From an uncultured virus (IMG/VR IMGVR_UViG_3300048625_000025) (Duplodnaviria; Heunggongvirae; Uroviricota; Caudoviricetes): 64,000 nt of DNA. The stretch spans positions 1 to 64,000 of the IMG/VR virus record IMGVR_UViG_3300048625_000025. One strand, given 5' to 3'. Made by a program: the position numbers and the translations under genes. Under the pieces are notes generated by a model that was not told the DNA's origin, did not search any database, and saw only the letters and a program-made list of their open reading frames with translations. This document shows positions 27,292 to 44,490 of the stretch, piece after piece (position 1 is the first letter of the stretch; every line of letters starts with the position of its first letter).

Positions 27292-29060
27292 CTTTCAAGA
27301 TCAAAGATTTAACCGTGAAGAATTTCATGAGCGTAGGAAATGCCACGCAAGCCGTCAACTTTGACCGCAATGACTTGACGCTAGTACTTGGTGAAAACTT
27401 AGACTTAGGCGGCGACGATACTGGCGCACGTAATGGCACAGGTAAAACAACCATCATCAATGCACTAAGCTTCGCCTTGTACGGTAATGCACTTACTAAC
27501 ATCAAGAAAGATAACTTGATCAATAAGACCAATGGCAAAGGCATGTTGGTTACCATTGATTTTGAAAAGGATGGTATTGACTATCGCATTGAGCGCGGGC
27601 GCAAGCCTGGCATTATGAAGTTCTTTGTGTCAGGTACTGAAAAAGAAATTACCGATGAGGCCCAAGGCGACAGCCGCGAAACTCAAGCAGAGATTGAGCG
27701 TATGTTAGGTATGAGCCACGATATGTTTAAGCATATCCTTGCACTCAACACCTACACTGAACCATTCCTTGCACTCAAAGCCAATGATCAACGCACTATT
27801 ATTGAGCAGTTGTTGGGCATTACCTTGTTAAGCGAGAAGGCAGAGTCATTGAAAGAACTGTCTAAAGCCACTAAAGATGCAATCACACAAGAAGAATATC
27901 GCATCAAAGCAGTAGGCGATGCTAACAAGCGTATCGAAGAACAGATTGGTAGTCTGCGTAGACGCCAGAAAATGTGGACAGAGCACCACGATCGTGATGT
28001 GCTACAGTTCCAACGTGCCTTTGATGAGTTAAGCACGTTAGACATCGAAGCTGAATTGCAAGCGCACAAAGAACTTAGCGAGTACAATCAGAAAGTCAAA
28101 GACATTAATGAGCTAAACAAAGCCCTTAAACGTGCAGAGTTAGATCAGGACCGTGAACGTAAGCTCTACGCTCGCATTGAGCAAGAAGTTGCTGCATTAC
28201 ATGAACACAAGTGTCATGCGTGTGGCCACGAGCTGCATGATGAAAATCACGAAACACAATTAGCAGCCAAACTAAAAGAATTAGAAACTGTTACCGTTGA
28301 CTTTGAAGCTCTAGGTTTTCAAATTGTAGAACTAAAGAATGCCTTAGCCGAATTTGGCGAAGCTGGTGCGCAACCAAAAGTCTATTACGATCGCGAAAGC
28401 GATGCGTTTGAACACCGTAGCAGTATGGCTAGCGTACTTGCCCAATTGTCTGCAAAGGAAAAGGAAGCCGATCCTTATGCAGAGCAAATTAAAGAAATGA
28501 GTGAGCAAGCGTTAGAAGAAATCTCATACGATGTAATGAACGAACTTGTGAGTTTGAAAGAGCACCAAGAGTTCTTGCTTAAATTGTTAACTAATAAAGA
28601 CAGCTTTATCCGTAAGCGCATTATCGATCAAAACTTGAGCTACTTAAATGCACGTTTAGGACAATACTTAGATCGCATTGGCTTGCCGCATACTGTAAAA
28701 TTCAACAACGACTTATCAGTTAGCATTACCGAACTAGGGCGCGATCTAGACTTTGACAACTTGTCACGTGGCGAACGTAACAGATTGATTTTGTCATTGA
28801 GCTGGGCGTTCCGTGATGTTTGGGAAAGTTTATATCAACCCATTAACCTGTTGTTCATTGACGAGCTAGTAGACAGCGGCATGGACACCAGTGGTGTTGA
28901 AAATGCACTAAGCATCCTTAAGAAGATGAGTCGTGAAAGCAACAAGAGCATTTGGCTTGTGTCGCACAAAGATGAGTTAGCGGGCCGAGTTAACAACACA
29001 TTACACGTTGTTAAGGAAAACGGCTACACCAGTTATAATACAGACATAGACATTGTTTAA
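27288..29060 (+). CDS. gp46: Recombination ATPase (Rad50/SbcC-like)
   Basis: KNFMSVG, Walker A NGTGKTT, zinc hook CHAC, signature LSRGE, Walker B LFIDE, SH. Confidence 0.93.
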   Translation: MTFKIKDLTVKNFMSVGNATQAVNFDRNDLTLVLGENLDLGGDDTGARNGTGKTTIINALSFALYGNALTNIKKDNLINKTNGKGMLVTIDFEKDGIDYRIERGRKPGIMKFFVSGTEKEITDEAQGDSRETQAEIERMLGMSHDMFKHILALNTYTEPFLALKANDQRTIIEQLLGITLLSEKAESLKELSKATKDAITQEEYRIKAVGDANKRIEEQIGSLRRRQKMWTEHHDRDVLQFQRAFDELSTLDIEAELQAHKELSEYNQKVKDINELNKALKRAELDQDRERKLYARIEQEVAALHEHKCHACGHELHDENHETQLAAKLKELETVTVDFEALGFQIVELKNALAEFGEAGAQPKVYYDRESDAFEHRSSMASVLAQLSAKEKEADPYAEQIKEMSEQALEEISYDVMNELVSLKEHQEFLLKLLTNKDSFIRKRIIDQNLSYLNARLGQYLDRIGLPHTVKFNNDLSVSITELGRDLDFDNLSRGERNRLILSLSWAFRDVWESLYQPINLLFIDELVDSGMDTSGVENALSILKKMSRESNKSIWLVSHKDELAGRVNNTLHVVKENGYTSYNTDIDIV

Positions 29061-30003
29061 CCTACAAGACATTCATATCGAGATCAGCAGCAAGTGTACA
29101 CTAAAATGTCCACGCTGCCCTCGTACTGAATTAAAGCCCGAACAACTGAATAGAGAAATAACGCTACATGAATTCATGTTGGCGTTTCCTCCGTCTATGC
29201 TAACTAACATGAAGACATTCTTGTTCTGCGGCGATGTAGGCGATCCAATCTATGCAACAGAGTTCCTAGAAATCGTTGAGTATCTAAAACTCAATCGCAT
29301 ACAAGTTAAGATTGTAACCAATGGTAGCTACAAGAGCGTAGACTGGTGGGATCGACTAGGGCACATGCTAACAGAGCATGATGCAGTTACATTTAGCGTA
29401 GACGGGTGGGATCAAGCGAGCAATGAACTATATCGAGTCAATAGCAATTTTGACAGTATCATTGCTGGTATCAAGAGTCTACGTGCAGCGTCGCCGTGTA
29501 GGATCATTTGGAGTTACATTATTTTTAACTTCAACGAGCACCACACCAGGGAGATCAAAGAAGTTGCACGGGCTGCGGGAGTCGACGAGTTCAATGAGGT
29601 GCATAGTACCAAGTTTGACGGTCGCTATGCAGTTAACGGGGTCGATCCATTATGCCCTGAGATTGTTATTAATGTGCCTAACTATCAAAAGAAAAAAGGC
29701 GCACTCAGTGCCCGTGGCATGGTAATTGATATCCAGTATCAAAAGGATGTGCATAGTTGGGCCAAGTGCTTGAACTGGAAAAAGGAAATGTTCATTAACG
29801 TTAACGGACTAGTGTTTCCCTGTCCTTGGTTCAACAGCGGATATCAGCAAAACGATTTTGTCGAAAAGTATCGCGATCGTTTAAGTATCAAGACACGACC
29901 CTTGTCTGACATCCTTGCGGATCCATTATGGGAAGAGTTTTTAACTAGATTAGAACTGTTCCCGTTAGAAGTTTGTAATATAAAGTGTAGAAATGATCGA
30001 TAA
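29053..30003 (+). CDS. Radical SAM protein with C-terminal SPASM/twitch-like Cys motifs
   Basis: CTLKCPRC, GDVGDP, TNGS, FSVDG, KC...INVNGLVFPCPW...C; TTG start overlapping gp46. Confidence 0.85.
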   Translation: MFNLQDIHIEISSKCTLKCPRCPRTELKPEQLNREITLHEFMLAFPPSMLTNMKTFLFCGDVGDPIYATEFLEIVEYLKLNRIQVKIVTNGSYKSVDWWDRLGHMLTEHDAVTFSVDGWDQASNELYRVNSNFDSIIAGIKSLRAASPCRIIWSYIIFNFNEHHTREIKEVARAAGVDEFNEVHSTKFDGRYAVNGVDPLCPEIVINVPNYQKKKGALSARGMVIDIQYQKDVHSWAKCLNWKKEMFINVNGLVFPCPWFNSGYQQNDFVEKYRDRLSIKTRPLSDILADPLWEEFLTRLELFPLEVCNIKCRNDR

Positions 30004-31225
30004 AGTATTTTGTAATGTGCCATGGAAGGAAGTGCATATCAATGCAGATGGCACTTATCATACCTGTGGAGCACAGCCCAACCGTGTATATGGGACGCCT
30101 GCGGCTGCACAGTACAATGTACATATCATGACTATACCCGAGTGGGTTGCTAGTGAACACCAACATGCTGCCCGTGTTAACAAATTGTCGGGCATCAATG
30201 AGCCCCTGTGCGCTATGTGTTATCATGAAGATGCAATGGGGTCTAGTAGCAAACGAGTTAAAGAAAATCACAAAGACGGAATTGATCCCGTTAACTTCTA
30301 CAAAACATTTGATCAACGCAAGTACGAAAATATTGCACCACGTATTAACAGCTTTCATATCAGCTTAGGTAACGAATGTAATCTTGCTTGCAGAATGTGT
30401 ACGCCAATGGCTAGCAGTAAGATTGCAGTCCAAGAAATTAAAGCAGGGACCTTTAGAGGTGCTGCCCGTATGAACTGGACTGAAGATCAACAAGCATGGG
30501 ATCATGTAACTGACTACATCTGCGGGTCAAAAGACTTGGAGTTTGTACACTTAATAGGTGGAGAACCCTTACTTAACCCTCGCTTTGAACAGCTAATTGA
30601 CCGCCTGCTACTTGCGGGCAAGAACAACATATATCTAGGATTTACTACCAACGGAACGGTGTTTAATCAATCACTGATGCAGAAACTAAACGCATTCAGA
30701 CACGTAGACGTTGGTGTTAGTATTGAATGCACCGGGGAACTTAACGATTTGATTCGACAGGGTTCGAGTACGCAAACAGTATTAGACAATATTGATTTAT
30801 ACCTAAAGCATCGCAAACAAGGACACGTCTATGTTACAGTACGTGCAGTACCTAGCGCACTGAGTGTACACACATTAGACGATTTATACCGCTGGTGTGT
30901 ATCAAGAGAAGTTGATGTAATGACTAACATGTTAGTTCGTCCAGCATATCAACAGATACAACACTTACCACAAGATATTAAAAAACGGTTGCTTGAACAA
31001 TATAGCAAATGGGAGCATAGCGAACCTGCACCAGCAGATAGCAACCCACGCGACCCTACATGGTTCAAGCAACACATAGACAACGAAATTAAGGCAATCA
31101 TCAAGGCACTAGAGCTACCAGGCGATCCTGTTTTAACGCAGGAATTGTACGAGAAGCTAACATTATGGCAATGGCTTAAACAGCCCCAAATAACAAATTA
31201 TTTTACTACTAGCATCAAGGCATAA
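29993..31225 (+). CDS. Radical SAM protein with N-terminal twitch/SPASM-like domain
   Basis: FCNVPW...INADG...C and CAMC; CNLACRMC; GGEP; TTNGT. Confidence 0.85.
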   Translation: MIDKVFCNVPWKEVHINADGTYHTCGAQPNRVYGTPAAAQYNVHIMTIPEWVASEHQHAARVNKLSGINEPLCAMCYHEDAMGSSSKRVKENHKDGIDPVNFYKTFDQRKYENIAPRINSFHISLGNECNLACRMCTPMASSKIAVQEIKAGTFRGAARMNWTEDQQAWDHVTDYICGSKDLEFVHLIGGEPLLNPRFEQLIDRLLLAGKNNIYLGFTTNGTVFNQSLMQKLNAFRHVDVGVSIECTGELNDLIRQGSSTQTVLDNIDLYLKHRKQGHVYVTVRAVPSALSVHTLDDLYRWCVSREVDVMTNMLVRPAYQQIQHLPQDIKKRLLEQYSKWEHSEPAPADSNPRDPTWFKQHIDNEIKAIIKALELPGDPVLTQELYEKLTLWQWLKQPQITNYFTTSIKA

Positions 31226-31258
31226 CTATAGAACACATGGCACTAAAACTAATCTAAC

Positions 31259-31687
31259 ATGACCTGGATATATCAAGGCGCACCCGTCGAAGAATTACCC
31301 GAAGACTGTGTTGGGTTTGTTTACTTAATTACAAATAATCTATCTGGCCGAAAGTACATAGGCAAAAAACTAGCCAAGTTCTCTAAGACAACTGTAAAAA
31401 CAGTGAAATTAAAGAATGGCACGAAAAAGAAAAAGAAAATCCGCTCAAAGATCGATAGCGATTGGAGAGAATATTATGGTTCAAGCACAGAGTTAACCTC
31501 AGACATTACAAAATTAGGCACCGAAAACTTTTCCAGAGAGATACTTCACATTTGCAAATCAAAGGCTGAATGTAGTTACATTGAAGCTAGAGAGCAATTC
31601 GAACGTAAAGTATTAGAAACAACAGATTATTATAACGGACAGATTTCTGTTCGTGTCCATGGCTCCCACATCATAAACAAAATTTAA
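31259..31687 (+). CDS. GIY-YIG nuclease, T4 endonuclease II (DenA)-like
   Basis: GFVYLITN...KYIGKK...SDWREYYGSS...E...YYN; 142 aa, single domain. Confidence 0.8.
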   Translation: MTWIYQGAPVEELPEDCVGFVYLITNNLSGRKYIGKKLAKFSKTTVKTVKLKNGTKKKKKIRSKIDSDWREYYGSSTELTSDITKLGTENFSREILHICKSKAECSYIEAREQFERKVLETTDYYNGQISVRVHGSHIINKI

Positions 31688-31692
31688 GACAC

Positions 31693-32198
31693 AAAGTCTA
31701 AGCAGGATACACAGTATAAGGCAAGCGCCAGCTAAAAGTCGGGCGCCTAGGAAAACTGGACCTCGGGTCACAGGGACGGAAGACTCCACGCTGTATGGAG
31801 CACTCAGCAACTATCCTTAACAGGACGACGATCGGATATGCCTTCATAAAACCGGTTTTGCTGTTTGAAAAGAATTTAATCAAGGCTAAAAGAAGGGAGA
31901 AAAACCCTAACGTTTATATATGTGTTAGCGTATGTATATAAACTGCCGTCGTATAAAGACGCAACTCGAGGTACCGGACGACCGCCTCTGTAATTGTTGT
32001 AACGCTAAGTGACTGTGCTACTCAGATGAAGTTCAATCATTTTTTGCCCTGCTCGGGCAAAGTGTGACCAATTAATCTAGATGAAGTATTAAATCGCTTC
32101 GCTCTGTATGTAAGCTAACAAATTAAAACTTTAACCTATGTTGTGAGCTGATAAGCGAAACAACAGATGTCGTAGACATCTTTAAACCCTTAGACTTT
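31693..32198 (+). ncRNA. Candidate large structured ncRNA (or structured DNA element) with paired termini
   Basis: The only ~500-nt gap without a credible ORF; AAAGTCTAAG (31693-702) pairs perfectly with CTTAGACTTT (32189-98); more than 10 internal stems, several with G-U pairs on the + strand. Confidence 0.6.
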
Positions 32199-32218
32199 AA
32201 TAAATGAATAACTGAGAC

Positions 32219-32449
32219 TTAGAAGAACGGAAGTCCTGATTTCTTTGTTGTTTCCATGTTATCGTTAACGATTTTATCTATAAGTTCTCTTTCCTGCTGG
32301 CTTAACAGCATGGCATCGTTGTAACTTATACCGCCGCGCATATACCAACATATACGCAGCACTTCCTCTTTCATGGCTTTTGTTTCTTTTTCATAACCCT
32401 CAATGAGGGCCATGCTGTCTTCTGCGTTGAGAATCAAAAGCCTTTGGCG
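32219..32449 (-). CDS. Tail/baseplate assembly chaperone C-terminal ORF (gp51- or gpT-like), probably reached by -1 frameshift
   Basis: WYMRGGISYNDAMLLSQQER; lies in the -1 frame of the upstream gene and is open from the slippery site at 32449-55. Confidence 0.65.
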   Translation of the reverse strand, partial: RQRLLILNAEDSMALIEGYEKETKAMKEEVLRICWYMRGGISYNDAMLLSQQERELIDKIVNDNMETTKKSGLPFF

Positions 32450-33282
32450 AAAAAATTAGAGTAATCAAACTCCACAGCTAGTTTGAATTGATGGCCACAC
32501 TCATTGCAGGTAGCGTCATGTGGCTTGATACCAGCTTCAGCTGCGATGCTTTCCATACGTGTGTTGATTTTACGCATTACACCAGCTTCTGCGTTTGCGT
32601 AGTATTCTCTAATGTGTGCAGGGTTTGTAACCACAATCCCGTCAGCAGTGATGCTTTTAGTACATGCCACAATGTTGTCTAAGTTAAGACTAATCATTTT
32701 CTTAACATGCTTATCGTACTCTGCAATACGCAATTCTTCATCTAGGTCTGGATTAGCAAGGGCCTGGATTAATTTCTCTTCTTCTAGTTTAACACCGCCT
32801 GATTTGCTTACTTGCGAGTAAGGCATGGGCTTTAACTGAATAGTCAGCGTTTCGTCTGCTGCAATTGGGGTAACGTAGTCTGGAATTTTTACCTTAGACA
32901 ACGACTCTGCTAGATCGATATCATAGTCGTTTTCTTCTTCACATGCAGGGCACTTGCTGCTAATAGGCATGTGTTGCCCGTAGCTAGCGATGCGAATTGC
33001 AATTAGCGTAGAATCAACGTCAATGCTTGGCATAGCCCATGCATCTTTAATGTTCGGGCAGCAGCTTTCAATCACTTGCACTACGCTAGTTCCGTTAACT
33101 AGTGCGTCTGGAGTGCGTAAGATGATTTCATCTTTAGTTGTCATTGGTAACACTGGAAGTTCTCCTGTACCCGGAAGCTCTAGCGCACCGTCTGCCCAGT
33201 ACTTGCCACCGCTGGTTAACTTAATGTACATTGCAGGTTGGCGAAAGTGACGAGATAGTGGGTTGATGCTTGAATTTGGCAT
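32434..33282 (-). CDS. Baseplate hub/tail assembly chaperone, gp26-like
   Basis: Real start ATG 33282 (MPNSSINPL) after SD AGGA; PMTTKDE, DVDSTLIAIRIASYG, CPAC and CNEC zinc motifs. Confidence 0.75.
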   Translation of the reverse strand: MPNSSINPLSRHFRQPAMYIKLTSGGKYWADGALELPGTGELPVLPMTTKDEIILRTPDALVNGTSVVQVIESCCPNIKDAWAMPSIDVDSTLIAIRIASYGQHMPISSKCPACEEENDYDIDLAESLSKVKIPDYVTPIAADETLTIQLKPMPYSQVSKSGGVKLEEEKLIQALANPDLDEELRIAEYDKHVKKMISLNLDNIVACTKSITADGIVVTNPAHIREYYANAEAGVMRKINTRMESIAAEAGIKPHDATCNECGHQFKLAVEFDYSNFFAKGF

Positions 33283-33334: not shown

Positions 33335-35821
33335 ATGGCTGATGTAAATCTGGACGAAGAGTTAGAAAAGTTTAAGAAGATAAGCGAAGTATATCGGCAC
33401 ACCATTGAGAAAAATATCGCAACAGAGCTTGGTAAGGGCAAAAGTGAAGCCGACGCTAAGAAGACTGCGCTGGATTTTGCTAAGAACATGGAATCAGCCA
33501 ATAAGATGTTCAAGCGATCGTATGATCAAATTGACGCTAGCTTAAAGGGCCTTAAGGAAAAGTTTAAAAGCGGAGGAATGTCAGCTGATGATCTTGAAGA
33601 ATCACTGGCTAGCTTACGCAAAGAAGTAAACAATACCGCGGACAAAGAGAAGAAAGCTGCACTAATTGCTGAGAAAGCAATACTCGAAGAAGCCAATGCT
33701 AGAAACAAATCCAGCGAAATCTTCAAGAACTCAATGGGTACACTGGCAGGCACTGTGCTTAAAGGGGTTGCAAGCTCGTTTACTAGATCTGCAACAGCAG
33801 CTCTAAGTGGTGGTGATGCACTGTCTGTGGCATCTGAGTTTATGAAAGCCAATATTGACACTGCTAACTCAGCAACACAAGTTGGTGCAAAGGCTCTTGG
33901 GGATTTTGGTGCAGCCACAGCAGGTGCTGGTGGCAAAATGGGTAAGTTTGGTATAGCTGCGTCAGTTGCTGGCGCCGCACTAGGATTCCTAAGTAATACT
34001 GTAAGTGAATTAGCTAAAGCTGGTATTGGCTTTATGCTGTCACAGACTCAAAAGCTAATCGGCGGCTTCCAAACAATGAGTGCCAGTGGTGCGATGTTTG
34101 CCGGCGGCATGAAAGAAATGATTAGAACTGCTAACTCTGCAGGACTAACACTAGAACAGTTTTCTAAGGCAGTTGGAGAGAACAAAGATGCACTGTCCCA
34201 GTTGGGAATGGGCGTAGGTGAAGGCAGTAAGAAACTAGCTAAAGCAATGGAAGCTGGTGGAGCAAGTGCCCGCAAAGGCATGATGGCTCTAGGCATGGGC
34301 ATGGAAGAGCAAGCAGGAGCTTATGCTCAAGTTATGGCTCAGATGGCCGGACCGAGCGGGAAGCTAAATGCAAGCAATGAAGAAATTGCTGCACGTACAG
34401 AAACATACGCAAAGAATTTAAAGCTATTGTCTGACTTAACTGGCGAAGATATGAAAGCCAAGCAAGAGCAGATTAGACAAGAAAATGATAACTTGGCATT
34501 CCAGCAGCAATTAGATGGAATGACAGAGCAAGAACGTATCAACATCACTGAGAGTATGAAGGGTATGAGCGAAGTTCAGCGCAAAGCCCTGCGTGAGCGT
34601 ATGATCTACGGCACTGTTATTAGCAAAGATGTTGCTATTGCAGAAGCAACTAACAGCGGACTGGCCAAGTCTAACCAAGAGTTTGCTAACCTGGCAGCAG
34701 AAGGTAGACTAAACTTAGATAACACCCTTAAGGTGCAAGGTGAGAACTCAGACGAAATCCACAAAGGTGCAATGGCTAACAAAGCATTGGCACAAGCTGG
34801 TAACGCAGGTAATGCTGATGCAGCAGCCGCAGCCCGTGATCAAATGAAAACTGATCAGCTGACACGTAAGTTGCAAACTGCGGCAACTGAAGAAGAGCGT
34901 AAGAAGATCCTTGAACAAATGAACGAAGGCAAGGGCGGCAAGCGAGAAGAAGTTGGACTACAAGAAACTCAGCAGCGTTTTGCAGTCGAAATGGAAAAGA
35001 TTGCAGCACAGAACTTGCCACAGTTTGCAAAAGCAATTGATACAACTATTAAAGACATTGAAGGTTCTGTTAAAGAGCTTGCTAAACTGGGAATTAACGC
35101 AGGCACACAGTCGCCTTTGTTAACAGCAATGGCAGGTATTGTGTCAGCATTAACTGCGATAGTACCAGTGCTGTCATTATTTGCTGCAAAAGGCGGAGCA
35201 AGTGGTGGCATTAGTGGTGGCGCAAAAGAAATGGCTAAGAGTGCTAAGAGTGGTGCAGGAGATTTCCTAAAAAGCAACAAGGGATCTATTGCTGGTATGG
35301 TGGGCGGCCTAGCCCTTGATAAGGGTGCCGACATGGCTAAAGAATCAGGGCACGAAAAACTTGGCGCCGGACTTGGTGTTGGTAGTGCAGCACTATCTGG
35401 TGCTAGTATGGGTGCCATGTTTGGCCCAATGGGTGCATTAGCTGGCGGCGTTCTTGGCGCAGGCTATGGACTATATCAAAACTGGGGCGGACTAACTGGA
35501 TCAAAACCAGACAAAGCTGCTACCCCAACTGGATCGTATGCTAACGGTGGTATTGCTAGTGGCCCAATGACTGGATATGCGTCTATGCTGCACGGCAAGG
35601 AACTAGTGCTACCAATGAAAGAAGACGGTGGCCTCAAAGAAGGGTCTGCTGGAATGAGCGAACTCTTAAAGATGTTTGGGGCAAACAGGTCAGCTACATC
35701 GGATTCGTCTAGTGAGTTAGCCTCACTGTTTAAAGAGCAACTGTCTAGAACAGAAGACTTAATTAGAATTATGGGCGATAATAGGGACATTACGGAACGT
35801 CTTATGCGTAACATGAGTTAA
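33335..35821 (+). CDS. Tape measure-like protein
   Basis: 828-aa Ala/Gly/Lys-rich helical protein with C-terminal YANGGIASGP...LHGKELVLP; adjacent to the chaperone genes. Confidence 0.7.
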   Translation: MADVNLDEELEKFKKISEVYRHTIEKNIATELGKGKSEADAKKTALDFAKNMESANKMFKRSYDQIDASLKGLKEKFKSGGMSADDLEESLASLRKEVNNTADKEKKAALIAEKAILEEANARNKSSEIFKNSMGTLAGTVLKGVASSFTRSATAALSGGDALSVASEFMKANIDTANSATQVGAKALGDFGAATAGAGGKMGKFGIAASVAGAALGFLSNTVSELAKAGIGFMLSQTQKLIGGFQTMSASGAMFAGGMKEMIRTANSAGLTLEQFSKAVGENKDALSQLGMGVGEGSKKLAKAMEAGGASARKGMMALGMGMEEQAGAYAQVMAQMAGPSGKLNASNEEIAARTETYAKNLKLLSDLTGEDMKAKQEQIRQENDNLAFQQQLDGMTEQERINITESMKGMSEVQRKALRERMIYGTVISKDVAIAEATNSGLAKSNQEFANLAAEGRLNLDNTLKVQGENSDEIHKGAMANKALAQAGNAGNADAAAAARDQMKTDQLTRKLQTAATEEERKKILEQMNEGKGGKREEVGLQETQQRFAVEMEKIAAQNLPQFAKAIDTTIKDIEGSVKELAKLGINAGTQSPLLTAMAGIVSALTAIVPVLSLFAAKGGASGGISGGAKEMAKSAKSGAGDFLKSNKGSIAGMVGGLALDKGADMAKESGHEKLGAGLGVGSAALSGASMGAMFGPMGALAGGVLGAGYGLYQNWGGLTGSKPDKAATPTGSYANGGIASGPMTGYASMLHGKELVLPMKEDGGLKEGSAGMSELLKMFGANRSATSDSSSELASLFKEQLSRTEDLIRIMGDNRDITERLMRNMS

Positions 35822-43493: not shown

Positions 43494-43546
43494 TGTTCGC
43501 TCTTAATTGAGAGTTTATGCTGTACCATCAGCGTAGGCCTAGAACG
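43494..43546 (+). promoter_or_regulatory. Structured 5' leader (three-way junction) of a late structural gene
   Basis: Follows TAAATA 43485-90; TGTTC/GAACG closing stem around CTCTT-AATT-GAGAG and TTTATGCTG-TACCAT-CAGCGTAGG. Confidence 0.5.
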
Positions 43547-43575
43547 CTATTTTCATATTTTAAGGAGAAAACAAA

Positions 43576-44490
43576 ATGGGACGTCCTTTAGCAAAAAGAT
43601 TTTTCGGTAACCGTAACGTCGGTACCAACGGTGGTTACACAGCAGATGATGGCATCGGCGGTGAAGGCCTAGCAAGTGCAGCAGTATCGGTTGCTGGTTC
43701 GTATACTACTACATTACCAACAATTACATTTTCGGCACCACAACTACCAGGCGGCGTAACAGCAACCGGTGTTATTGTGTCTAAAGTAATTAGCGCCACA
43801 ATTTCAGGTGGTACAGGATATGGTAACGCACAAACATTTGACTTAACAGTCACTACAGCAGGCGGTTCAGCAGTTCTTAACGTAACTTCCGATGCTGGTG
43901 GTGCAGTTGTTACCGTTAACAGCGTTACAACCGCAGGCTCGTTTACTGCATTGAGCGCGGTAACTGGCGTTTCTGGTGGTACAGGTACTGGTGCAGTTCC
44001 AGTATTAACATACGGTGCATTATCAGTGACAGTTACTAACAAAGGTTCTGGCTACACAGCAGCACCAACAGTGTCGTACACAAACCGTGGTGGTATTACA
44101 GTAAACACTATTACATTAACAACTGACAGTGGTGATGTTGGTTCTGCAACAAACCAAGAAAATGCTATCCTTGCTTACGCTTACGTAACTAGTAACAGCT
44201 TAGTTGCTGATATTAACGCACAAAAAGGTAGCCACCGCTATCGCGTCACAACTAGCGAAGGTACAGCAGTATGTTCTTTAGTTGCAGCTACACCAGCAGC
44301 AGTAGGAGAAATGAGTATTACTGCTACAGACAGCAGCGGCAAGACTTACTATGTTACCAAGCTAACTAGCCACAACGCATTGTTGACACAATACGGTACA
44401 GCCGGGCATGAGTTTGATGACGGTACAATGGTACGTTGGACATTTGATGCAGCTACATTGAACACTACTGTTCAAATTGCTAACGCCTAA
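43576..44490 (+). CDS. Virion structural protein (Thr/Gly-rich, possible head decoration)
   Basis: Strong SD TAAGGAG, own promoter and terminator; MGRPL start; QKGSHRYRV. Confidence 0.6.
   Translation: MGRPLAKRFFGNRNVGTNGGYTADDGIGGEGLASAAVSVAGSYTTTLPTITFSAPQLPGGVTATGVIVSKVISATISGGTGYGNAQTFDLTVTTAGGSAVLNVTSDAGGAVVTVNSVTTAGSFTALSAVTGVSGGTGTGAVPVLTYGALSVTVTNKGSGYTAAPTVSYTNRGGITVNTITLTTDSGDVGSATNQENAILAYAYVTSNSLVADINAQKGSHRYRVTTSEGTAVCSLVAATPAAVGEMSITATDSSGKTYYVTKLTSHNALLTQYGTAGHEFDDGTMVRWTFDAATLNTTVQIANA

Follow-up and report, generated by a model that had tools for sequence, protein, structure and literature searches.

A predicted large phage RNA whose two matching segments change in step beside a GIY-YIG nuclease gene

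Can two stretches of one RNA be free to vary and yet be kept the same as each other and, if so, what might be reading them? The question is posed by a noncoding gap in the DNA of an uncultured virus (Duplodnaviria; Heunggongvirae; Uroviricota; Caudoviricetes), of whose 76-kb IMG/VR record, IMGVR_UViG_3300048625_000025, we have analyzed positions 1 to 64,000 (the window, 64,000 nucleotides [nt] in all). Directly after the gene for a GIY-YIG nuclease, this gap encodes what, judged from its relatives, is a genuine large RNA gene, and one that was already known in part: its first third matches an orphan RNA motif, Polynucleobacter-1 (Rfam RF01718), and the rest is built around two short segments that have changed together, in the same direction, in one lineage after another. 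With belief and doubt about evenly balanced, we favor a reading in which the gap would specify an RNA of ~465 nt that is transcribed together with the nuclease, acts in trans and displays two identical recognition segments. The original prediction, made by a model from the letters of the window, had called the gap a novel large phage noncoding RNA; a large structured phage element on the + strand it is, but complete novelty is lost for the 147 nt at its 5' end.

Two segments that change in step

The segments lie in direct repeats, ..ACUC-AGAUGAA-GU and ..AUCU-AGAUGAA-GU, each of which follows a GUGAC box and which together flank a hairpin at 32043-61. We compared them in an alignment (A2) of 119 distinct cores of 342-415 nt. 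By mutual information, the variable positions of the repeats are among the strongest couplings of the whole RNA, and the rule that couples them is identity, not complementarity: at 32024:32079, the combinations are GG in 70 sequences, AA in 48 and GA in 1; at 32028:32083, GG in 73 and AA in 46; and at 32030:32085, UU in 74, AA in 36, GG in 8 and AU in 1. In other words, the two repeats agree at these three positions in 118, 119 and 118 of the 119 sequences. The variable positions are few, about 3-5 of 13.

When the repeat columns were left out of the tree building, the minimum numbers of changes at the three positions came to 23, 14 and 21-22, counts that are rough in absolute terms because the median column changes 11 times on the same quickly made tree. 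If only well-supported branches are counted, the independent pairs of lineages with changes in the same direction number 11, 7 and 10, and there are none with opposite changes (p about 0.001, 0.016 and 0.002, respectively); a control that paired two different positions gave p = 1, which is to say no link. The rule is seen again in more distant versions of the RNA. Two loci that join the same 3' module to other 5' domains (L292, 1927-2320, and L283, 1927-2400) carry a new core, ACAUGAA, in both repeats, and in all three bacterial copies, whose 3' domains have diverged, the repeats are identical within the copy (AGCGAAA, GGCGAAA and GGCGAAA).

A complement to the repeats was sought in the alignment, in each RNA singly, within 1.5 kb on either side and elsewhere in the window, and none was found. 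An identity rule with no internal partner suggests that both segments read one external partner, and it is for this reason that we favor a scaffold acting in trans.

Other ideas about the repeats were tried and set aside. Pairing of repeat 1 with repeat 2, as drawn by RNAalifold, and a self-complementary repeat 2 are both broken, as judged by eye, by the loci with the ACAUGAA core. Mimicry of the start of the nuclease gene was rejected because, in a table of both, the start regions vary without regard to the repeat cores. CsrA sites, box C/D or k-turn motifs, anticodon or start-codon mimicry and type III antitoxin repeats were dismissed by eye, the bases that they need (GGA, sheared GA, U33) not being kept in all cores.

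There is one familiar setting in which two sequences must match and may nevertheless vary: the crossover cores of site-specific recombination sites. Could the gap, then, be working as DNA—as an origin of replication, as a packaging site or as sites of recombination—with the repeats serving as matching sites for a protein or for crossover? A structured origin had been offered in the original prediction as an alternative, the element does lie at a convergent junction in the window, and the bacterial copy in genome G055 is two genes from an integrase. We nonetheless regard a DNA-level role as very improbable. The covariation is that of an RNA: it preserves Watson-Crick and G-U pairing on a single strand, in the three pseudoknots as well, and there are tetraloops of the RNA type. 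Cumulative GC skew makes no turn at 32 kb and rises steadily through 24-44 kb, no recombinase stands beside the phage copies, and the repeat word occurs only twice in the window, not as several iterons.

The RNA and its parts

The gap is as real as the original prediction had it. The nuclease open reading frame (ORF), on the + strand, ends at 31687 and the next ORF, on the - strand, ends at 32219, leaving 531 nt without a credible ORF (from 31942 to 32218, there is none of 30 aa or more); the converging - strand genes begin at 32219, past the gap. The 506-nt stretch that had been singled out as highly structured (31693-32198) is indeed so, its folding energy beating 100 of 100 dinucleotide shuffles on either strand (z = -3.13 on + and -3.08 on -), and energy alone therefore selects no strand. 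The choice of the + strand, which the original prediction had made from G-U pairs, is borne out by wobbles that covary on that strand (at one pair, UG in 70 sequences, UA in 32 and CG in 17). One hairpin alternates GCAA, GAAA, GUAA and UUCG loops across the alignment, and such swaps of GNRA and UUCG loops, together with the + strand wobbles, point to RNA rather than DNA. A reading as tRNA or transfer-messenger RNA was dropped when ARAGORN gave neither within the window. A viral contig of 354,098 bp that is rated complete has 100% identity to window positions 31000-33000 and holds one copy of the element; blastn with 31600-32300 gave no match among 50,697 records of cultured phages.

How much of this RNA had been seen before? 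With cmscan, RF01718 matches 31720-31866 (+) at 109.5 bits (gathering score, 37 bits) and E 1e-24, over model positions 1-141 of 141, and the remainder of the gap gives noise only against Rfam (E 0.5-10). The element is thus not wholly new, and the claim that it was no known RNA fails for 31720-31866; the next ~320 nt are absent from Rfam. These, as far as the terminal hairpin at 32165-32181, are conserved equally with the 5' third that the Rfam model spans. Polynucleobacter-1 was published in 2010 (Weinberg et al., PMC2864571) from 16 representatives, one in a Polynucleobacter genome and the others metagenomic; it was judged there to be an RNA that might regulate in cis, no function being known for it, and was placed in fresh water and in the Burkholderiales. 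In a full-text search of the literature, the name was used only in that paper.

The two parts belong together. An exact search with a 17-mer from the motif found ten viral loci, nine with RF01718, and these loci have 66-74% identity to the window from the nuclease gene through ~260 nt past the Rfam model, the noncoding part being conserved as strongly as the coding part. A 19-mer from the undescribed part has matches in at least 120 viral contigs. With profile hidden Markov models of each part, 149 of 159 loci prove to have the 5' and 3' parts directly adjoining on one strand; most of the remaining 10 are truncated by the end of a contig or locus, and in none does the Rfam part stand alone.

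The structure that we curated (62 pairs in 14 helices, three of which are pseudoknots) was tested on alignment A2. Standard pairs form in 96.8% of its cells as against 84.8% after shuffling of columns (0 of 500 shuffles as high), 850 cells are double changes as against 207 in shuffles, and 44 pairs show changes on both sides as against 31.9; sliding the partners by 1-3 columns leaves only 33-45% paired. Helices 1-8, those of the 5' domain, covary, and helices 2-8, which make up the Rfam part, are 89-99.6% paired, with both-side changes in all except the invariant 2-bp helix 7. A small pseudoknot in this domain, 31721-22/31731-32 (one pair is GC in 87 sequences and AU in 30), is absent from the structure line of the Rfam match. 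For helices 9-13, on which a mutual information analysis was also run, both-side changes were found in 6/6, 3/5, 4/4 and 1/4 pairs; the helix with changes in all six of its pairs joins 31926-31 to 32002-07. The hairpin between the repeats, examined in 177 sequences, shows strong compensation: TA 88, AT 37 and CG 32 at 32045:59; GC 131 and AT 37 at 32046:58; and CG 133 and GC 31 at 32049:55. The inner stem of the 31912-43 hairpin is conserved and covarying; at its outer stem, at the 31894-908 hairpin and at the tail stems, MAFFT alignments were too shifted for their statistics to be used.

Most of the stems that the original prediction had listed prove to be conserved and covarying in the 119 homologues. 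In the Rfam part, these are 31725-29/31742-46, 31756-62/31766-73, 31784-88/31796-800, 31805-10/31858-63 and 31830-34/31853-57; beyond it, they are the inner part of 31912-43, 31962-65/31996-99 with 31969-72/31984-87, and 32043-49/32055-61. In many related loci, folded one by one, a terminal hairpin like its GATGTC/GACATC (32166-80), with differing stem sequences, ranks first among the local folds of the tail. Its TATG/CATA stem, on the other hand, is a lineage-specific insertion, and the 10-bp pair of 31693-702 with 32189-98 that was to close the whole element, although present in the window, is not conserved: runs of 8 or more occur in 10 of 112 loci, as against 13.9 of 112 in mismatched controls.

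The tail was also folded singly in 114 loci. One of its two adjacent hairpins is often the strongest fold, again with differing stem sequences, an AGCGAAA-like word is present in 77 of the 114, and pairs of a mini-stem covary (GC 160 and AT 17; CG 161 and TA 12). A pairing of 32097-103 with 32154-60 was rejected: its strands are complementary and yet invariant, and the pairing is unsupported for that reason. The bacterial copies show the same tail, and this, with the tail hairpins, leads us to a span of about 31720-32183 for the RNA. The RNA probably ends at the terminal hairpin, which may also terminate the - strand genes that converge on it.

Table 1. Features of the RNA and of the adjoining gene, in window coordinates
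Feature	Position	Strand	Remarks
SegE-type GIY-YIG nuclease, 142 aa, catalytic domain only	31259-31687	+	directly upstream of the RNA
5' domain, RF01718 (Polynucleobacter-1), full length	31720-31866	+	cmscan; extra pseudoknot 31721-22/31731-32
First half of 3' domain	31867-32008	+	no Rfam match; invariant box AAGGCUAAAAGA; invariant GGUACCGGAC.ACCGCC
Hairpin with loop UAGCGU (31926-31)	31912-31943	+	loop pairs with ACGCUA 32002-07
Pseudoknot GUCGU/ACGAC	31948-52 / 31978-82	+	swaps, e.g., GUUGU/ACAAC to GUCAG/CUGAC
Helix	31962-65/31996-99	+	all four pairs covary
Helix	31969-72/31984-87	+	with 31962-65/31996-99, surrounds invariant GGUACCGGAC.ACCGCC
Module 1: GUGAC box 32009-13, linker, repeat 1 32019-32032	32009-32032	+	CUC 32021-23 plus variable 7-mer AGAUGAA 32024-30
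Hairpin UUUGCCC/GGGCAAA	32043-49/32055-61	+	between the two repeats; strongly compensated
Module 2: GUGUGAC box 32062-68, linker, repeat 2 32074-32087	32062-32087	+	UCU 32076-78 plus AGAUGAA 32079-85
Tail	32093-32181	+	conserved AUCGCUUCGCUCU (32093-105), then variable spacer, two hairpins
Hairpin UGUUGU/ACAACA enclosing GAGC..AGCGAAA	32139-65	+	
Terminal hairpin AGAUGUC/GACAUCU, then UUU	32165-81	+	

The nuclease gene and the spread of the module

What travels with this RNA? In phages, a nuclease does. The protein matches Pfam PF19835 at 121.6 bits (cut-off, 25 bits) over residues 3-129, has no other Pfam domain, and matches PHROG 447; phmmer found no relatives of it in the PDB. Its residues Y22, Y33-I34-G35, R93, E109 and N126 are invariant in 8 relatives, and we take them to be the GIY and YIG tyrosines, the Arg, the Glu and the Asn of catalysis. 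Among 83 representative loci, the nuclease gene is upstream on the same strand, with 57-84% identity, in 81, and the other two are cut off upstream. It adjoins the RNA directly in 75 loci and is separated from it by one extra co-directional gene in six (these genes encode 257-341 aa, and two of the products start, by eye, with a GDSL-like GCS(Y/F)TAG). From the protein side, a strict pattern (CUC plus a 7-mer, 25-110 nt, then UCU plus the same 7-mer) lies downstream of close relatives of the nuclease in 64 of the 71 loci with room for it and on 0 of 80 minus strands. The linkage to the adjacent GIY-YIG gene is thus tight whether one begins with the RNA (81/81) or with the protein (64/71).

In most loci, the stop codon of the nuclease is 1-25 nt before the start of the RNA, with no promoter-like site between the two. 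Because there is neither room nor signal for a promoter, the simplest account would have the RNA made as the 3' portion of the nuclease transcript, and from this arrangement gene and RNA are probably co-transcribed. A semi-conserved word of 8 nt, RCRGTWAA, is found ahead of the RNA (31711-31719 in the window, with equivalents in 85 loci) and often includes the nuclease stop codon. On the far side, either strand may carry the next ORF (the - strand in 45 loci, the + strand in 28), from which it follows that the element is not a 5' leader or riboswitch; the downstream genes of the window recur in 35-36 of the 83 loci.

It might be thought that so close a follower is simply a 3' untranslated region, acting only in cis to stabilize the nuclease mRNA or control its expression, and the short distance from the stop codon and the missing promoter would suit such a role. 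We consider it quite unlikely to be the whole story. A pseudoknotted and deeply conserved structure of ~465 nt far exceeds what protection of a 3' end needs, six loci tolerate another gene in between, and the bacterial copies do without the nuclease; moreover, repeats kept identical would have no role in it, and the start of the nuclease gene shows no variation that goes with the repeat cores.

Nor do we think it likely, although we take it as a serious possibility, that the nuclease belongs with the selfish, free-standing homing endonucleases of Seg type and sits beside (and perhaps cuts) an RNA gene with a function of its own, so that co-conversion would account for their linkage. The protein is in the Pfam SegE family, its PHROG neighbors are annotated as homing endonucleases, the pair is found behind 15 different families of upstream neighbors (15 clusters in 120 loci), RNA and nuclease each occur alone in some genomes, and no covariation of protein with RNA was found. 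Homing genes are sporadic, however, and an RNA locus free of the nuclease was seen in 0 of 81 phage loci. The protein is 57-86% identical across loci, no DNA-binding domain follows the 123-position catalytic profile, and the family is represented in 513 phage records, mostly of T4-like cyanophages, in one of which it is labeled as a numbered T4-like gene cluster.

The family of this nuclease reaches well past the RNA that we began with. At least 585 viral contigs encode a relative; among the best 80 of these (70-86% identity), the 5' domain is of the Rfam type in only 28, and Rfam matches were absent from 20 of the others. When 28 of 80 is set against the 64 of 71 loci that have the repeat pattern, the constant part is seen to be the 3' twin-repeat module and not Polynucleobacter-1. 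The 5' domains of the L292 and L283 kinds are unrelated to Polynucleobacter-1 and are not in Rfam, which makes at least two further types, and 179 distinct twin-repeat modules have been collected in all. At greater distance are the 513 phage records, all below 60% identity and often mislabeled "NAD synthetase." In four cultured phages (Melnitz, ACP17, S-SSM7 and phiN3), annotated genes follow the nuclease gene with at most ~150 nt between, and there is no RF01718 in the whole records and no twin-repeat pattern within 2.5 kb of the nuclease gene.

In bacteria, RF01718 was found in 3 of 151 sampled Burkholderiales genomes, each of 1.8-1.9 Mb, and it is sporadic within the groups concerned (1/33 and 2/7). 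A scan of 185,579 species genomes for the exact pattern returned 41 stretches of which 3 are real, all on metagenome-assembled contigs, one of them phage-like. One bacterial copy (locus L281, G055:C4:64000-81000) is in an island with a phage-type integrase, a 224-aa gene of unknown kind and DUF6641; an operon of this island (MG280, MotB_plug, EH_Signature and SNF2+Mrr) looks like a Zorya-like defense system. The DUF6641 gene is divergent beside the RNA in both of the two bacterial loci examined, and a third such gene abuts a weak, sub-threshold match in genome G097. As a bacterial partner protein DUF6641 was rejected, the module being present in only 2 of 24 DUF6641 loci and the family being absent from the phage; of 401 Burkholderiales genomes sampled for it, 14 have the family, most of them 1.6-2.1 Mb in size, and a single genome may hold as many as 4 copies. 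A template RNA for a reverse transcriptase (of the retron, DRT2 or telomerase-like kind) was rejected as well, there being no reverse transcriptase in the genomes scanned: RVT_1 was sought without a match in the complete 354-kb relative, the window's record and two bacterial carriers, and control genomes gave matches.

A few other features of the window may be recorded here. Just upstream of the nuclease gene are two adjoining radical SAM/SPASM genes, of 316 and 410 aa (29053-31225, +), the second of which recurs in 5 of the 83 loci. Beyond the gap, a 72-aa ORF (32219-32437) abuts a baseplate-hub-like ORF (PF12322; 32434-33513), both on the - strand, and a TTTTTTC run on that strand (32449-32455) precedes the stop of the PF12322 ORF by 13-21 nt. 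An Ala/Gly-rich ORF of 828 aa (33335-35821, +) has no Pfam or PHROG match. Far from the gap, at 43499-43578 (+), is a second Rfam match, to RF02980, freshwater-2 RNA (55.9 bits; gathering score, 49.9), which is classed as cis-regulatory.

A twice-read partner, and known systems

How, then, might such an RNA work? Window positions 31720 to ~32183 (+) would encode one structured RNA, made together with the preceding GIY-YIG gene, beginning at or a few bases past the nuclease stop codon and ending at the terminal hairpin. Its 5' third would take the Polynucleobacter-1 fold, and the rest would be a pseudoknotted domain arranged around a duplicated module—GUGAC box, linker, pyrimidine triplet and a variable segment of 7 to 10 nt—whose copies would flank a hairpin, with the two tail hairpins to follow. 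Such a rigid scaffold would hold out two unpaired segments of the same sequence, working in trans, and both would read the same partner twice: either two copies of one nucleic-acid sequence or a partner that is itself symmetric. Conservation and covariation of the RNA type, change of the two segments in concert, their want of a partner within the RNA and the link to the nuclease gene are established; that the RNA is transcribed, that it acts in trans and that its partner is a nucleic acid we infer.

Does the nuclease take part? That the partner process involves the co-expressed nuclease, with the RNA as its specificity or control subunit, is a tentative proposal to which we would give about a third of our belief; otherwise, the linkage of RNA and nuclease would be transcriptional only. 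In its favor are the strict linkage in phages, the lack of a DNA-binding domain and a Lys-rich loop in the nuclease that is 5-7 residues longer than in relatives without the RNA. Bolder still, and a long shot, is the idea that the identical segments are programmable recognition elements, making the RNA the dual-guide or specificity subunit of an RNA-directed GIY-YIG nuclease. Stranger yet is the alternative that the two strands touch one another in parallel, base for base, which would likewise oblige them to be identical.

Several observations weigh against a trans-acting RNA that works with its neighbor. A partner in trans was looked for and none was found. No residue of the nuclease tracks the state of the repeats (the best columns explain 27-52% of the entropy of the repeat states, and all of these are highly variable columns). 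RNA and nuclease each occur elsewhere without the other: the three bacterial copies of the RNA have no nuclease, and the nuclease family is common with no RNA nearby, although the cultured phages examined were four of 513 records. The counts of change, moreover, rest on a quick tree of a short RNA, folding energy gives nearly equal z on the two strands and so does not prefer the +, and on the + strand the U-tail after the terminal hairpin is weak (2-3 U), a simple scan calling a terminator on the - strand only.

On either of the bolder ideas, that of guides or that of parallel contact, what would follow is a new class of large RNA, with swappable 5' domains, common to freshwater phages and to mobile islands of their hosts. 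In any case, an orphan Rfam motif of 2010 is seen to be one piece of a far larger RNA that abounds in uncultured phages of fresh water, some with genomes of ~350 kb, and, if the finding holds, RF01718 should be rebuilt. Few RNAs of such size and depth of conservation lack a known function, and those that do have time and again opened up new biochemistry. Here, the two segments, by mutating together, predict that one partner is read twice. The 3' module stays constant while 5' domains are exchanged, and its strict linkage to a nuclease that lacks a DNA-binding domain makes RNA-dependent control of that nuclease something that can be tested.

The nearest comparison is Polynucleobacter-1 itself, whose whole 141-position model is matched with the same helices and whose habitat is also matched, the present loci being freshwater-type viral contigs and small Burkholderiales genomes. 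As published, the motif would be a stand-alone RNA of ~141 nt and possibly a cis-regulator of the 5' leader kind, whereas here it is the 5' third of a ~465-nt RNA and lies downstream of a gene; and related loci swap in other 5' domains and retain the 3' module.

In scale, the RNA resembles GOLLD, ROOL, OLE and HEARO, which also run to several hundred nt with many pseudoknotted helices, are found in phages and lake metagenomes, and are of unknown function. HEARO, too, sits beside a nuclease gene. We know of no GOLLD, ROOL, OLE or HEARO RNA that carries twin segments kept identical. None of their Rfam models matched within 31500-32500 at E up to 10, and a relation to ROOL or GOLLD, with which the original prediction had compared the RNA in scale, is not supported. 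GOLLD, ROOL and OLE form homo-oligomers, according to PMC12286853.

A different likeness is to segB of phage T4, for here, too, in a T4-related phage, a GIY-YIG gene of the Seg kind lies beside the gene for a structured RNA. In T4, segB is a free-standing GIY-YIG homing endonuclease in a cluster of tRNA genes. Unlike it, the present nuclease is not sporadic (81/81), has 142 aa without a DNA-binding domain, and has family members in 513 phage records.

Finally, there are the RNAs that carry guides: CRISPR RNA (crRNA), omega RNA, the IS110 bridge RNA and box C/D RNA. Of the six flanking genes that were scanned with Pfam and PHROG, none stood out as a Cas, TnpB, IscB or IS110 gene. The architecture is nonetheless similar, a conserved scaffold holding segments that are free to vary and that have no partner within the RNA. 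Box C/D and bridge RNAs even hold two such variable segments. What sets the present RNA apart from all of these is that its two segments must be identical to each other.

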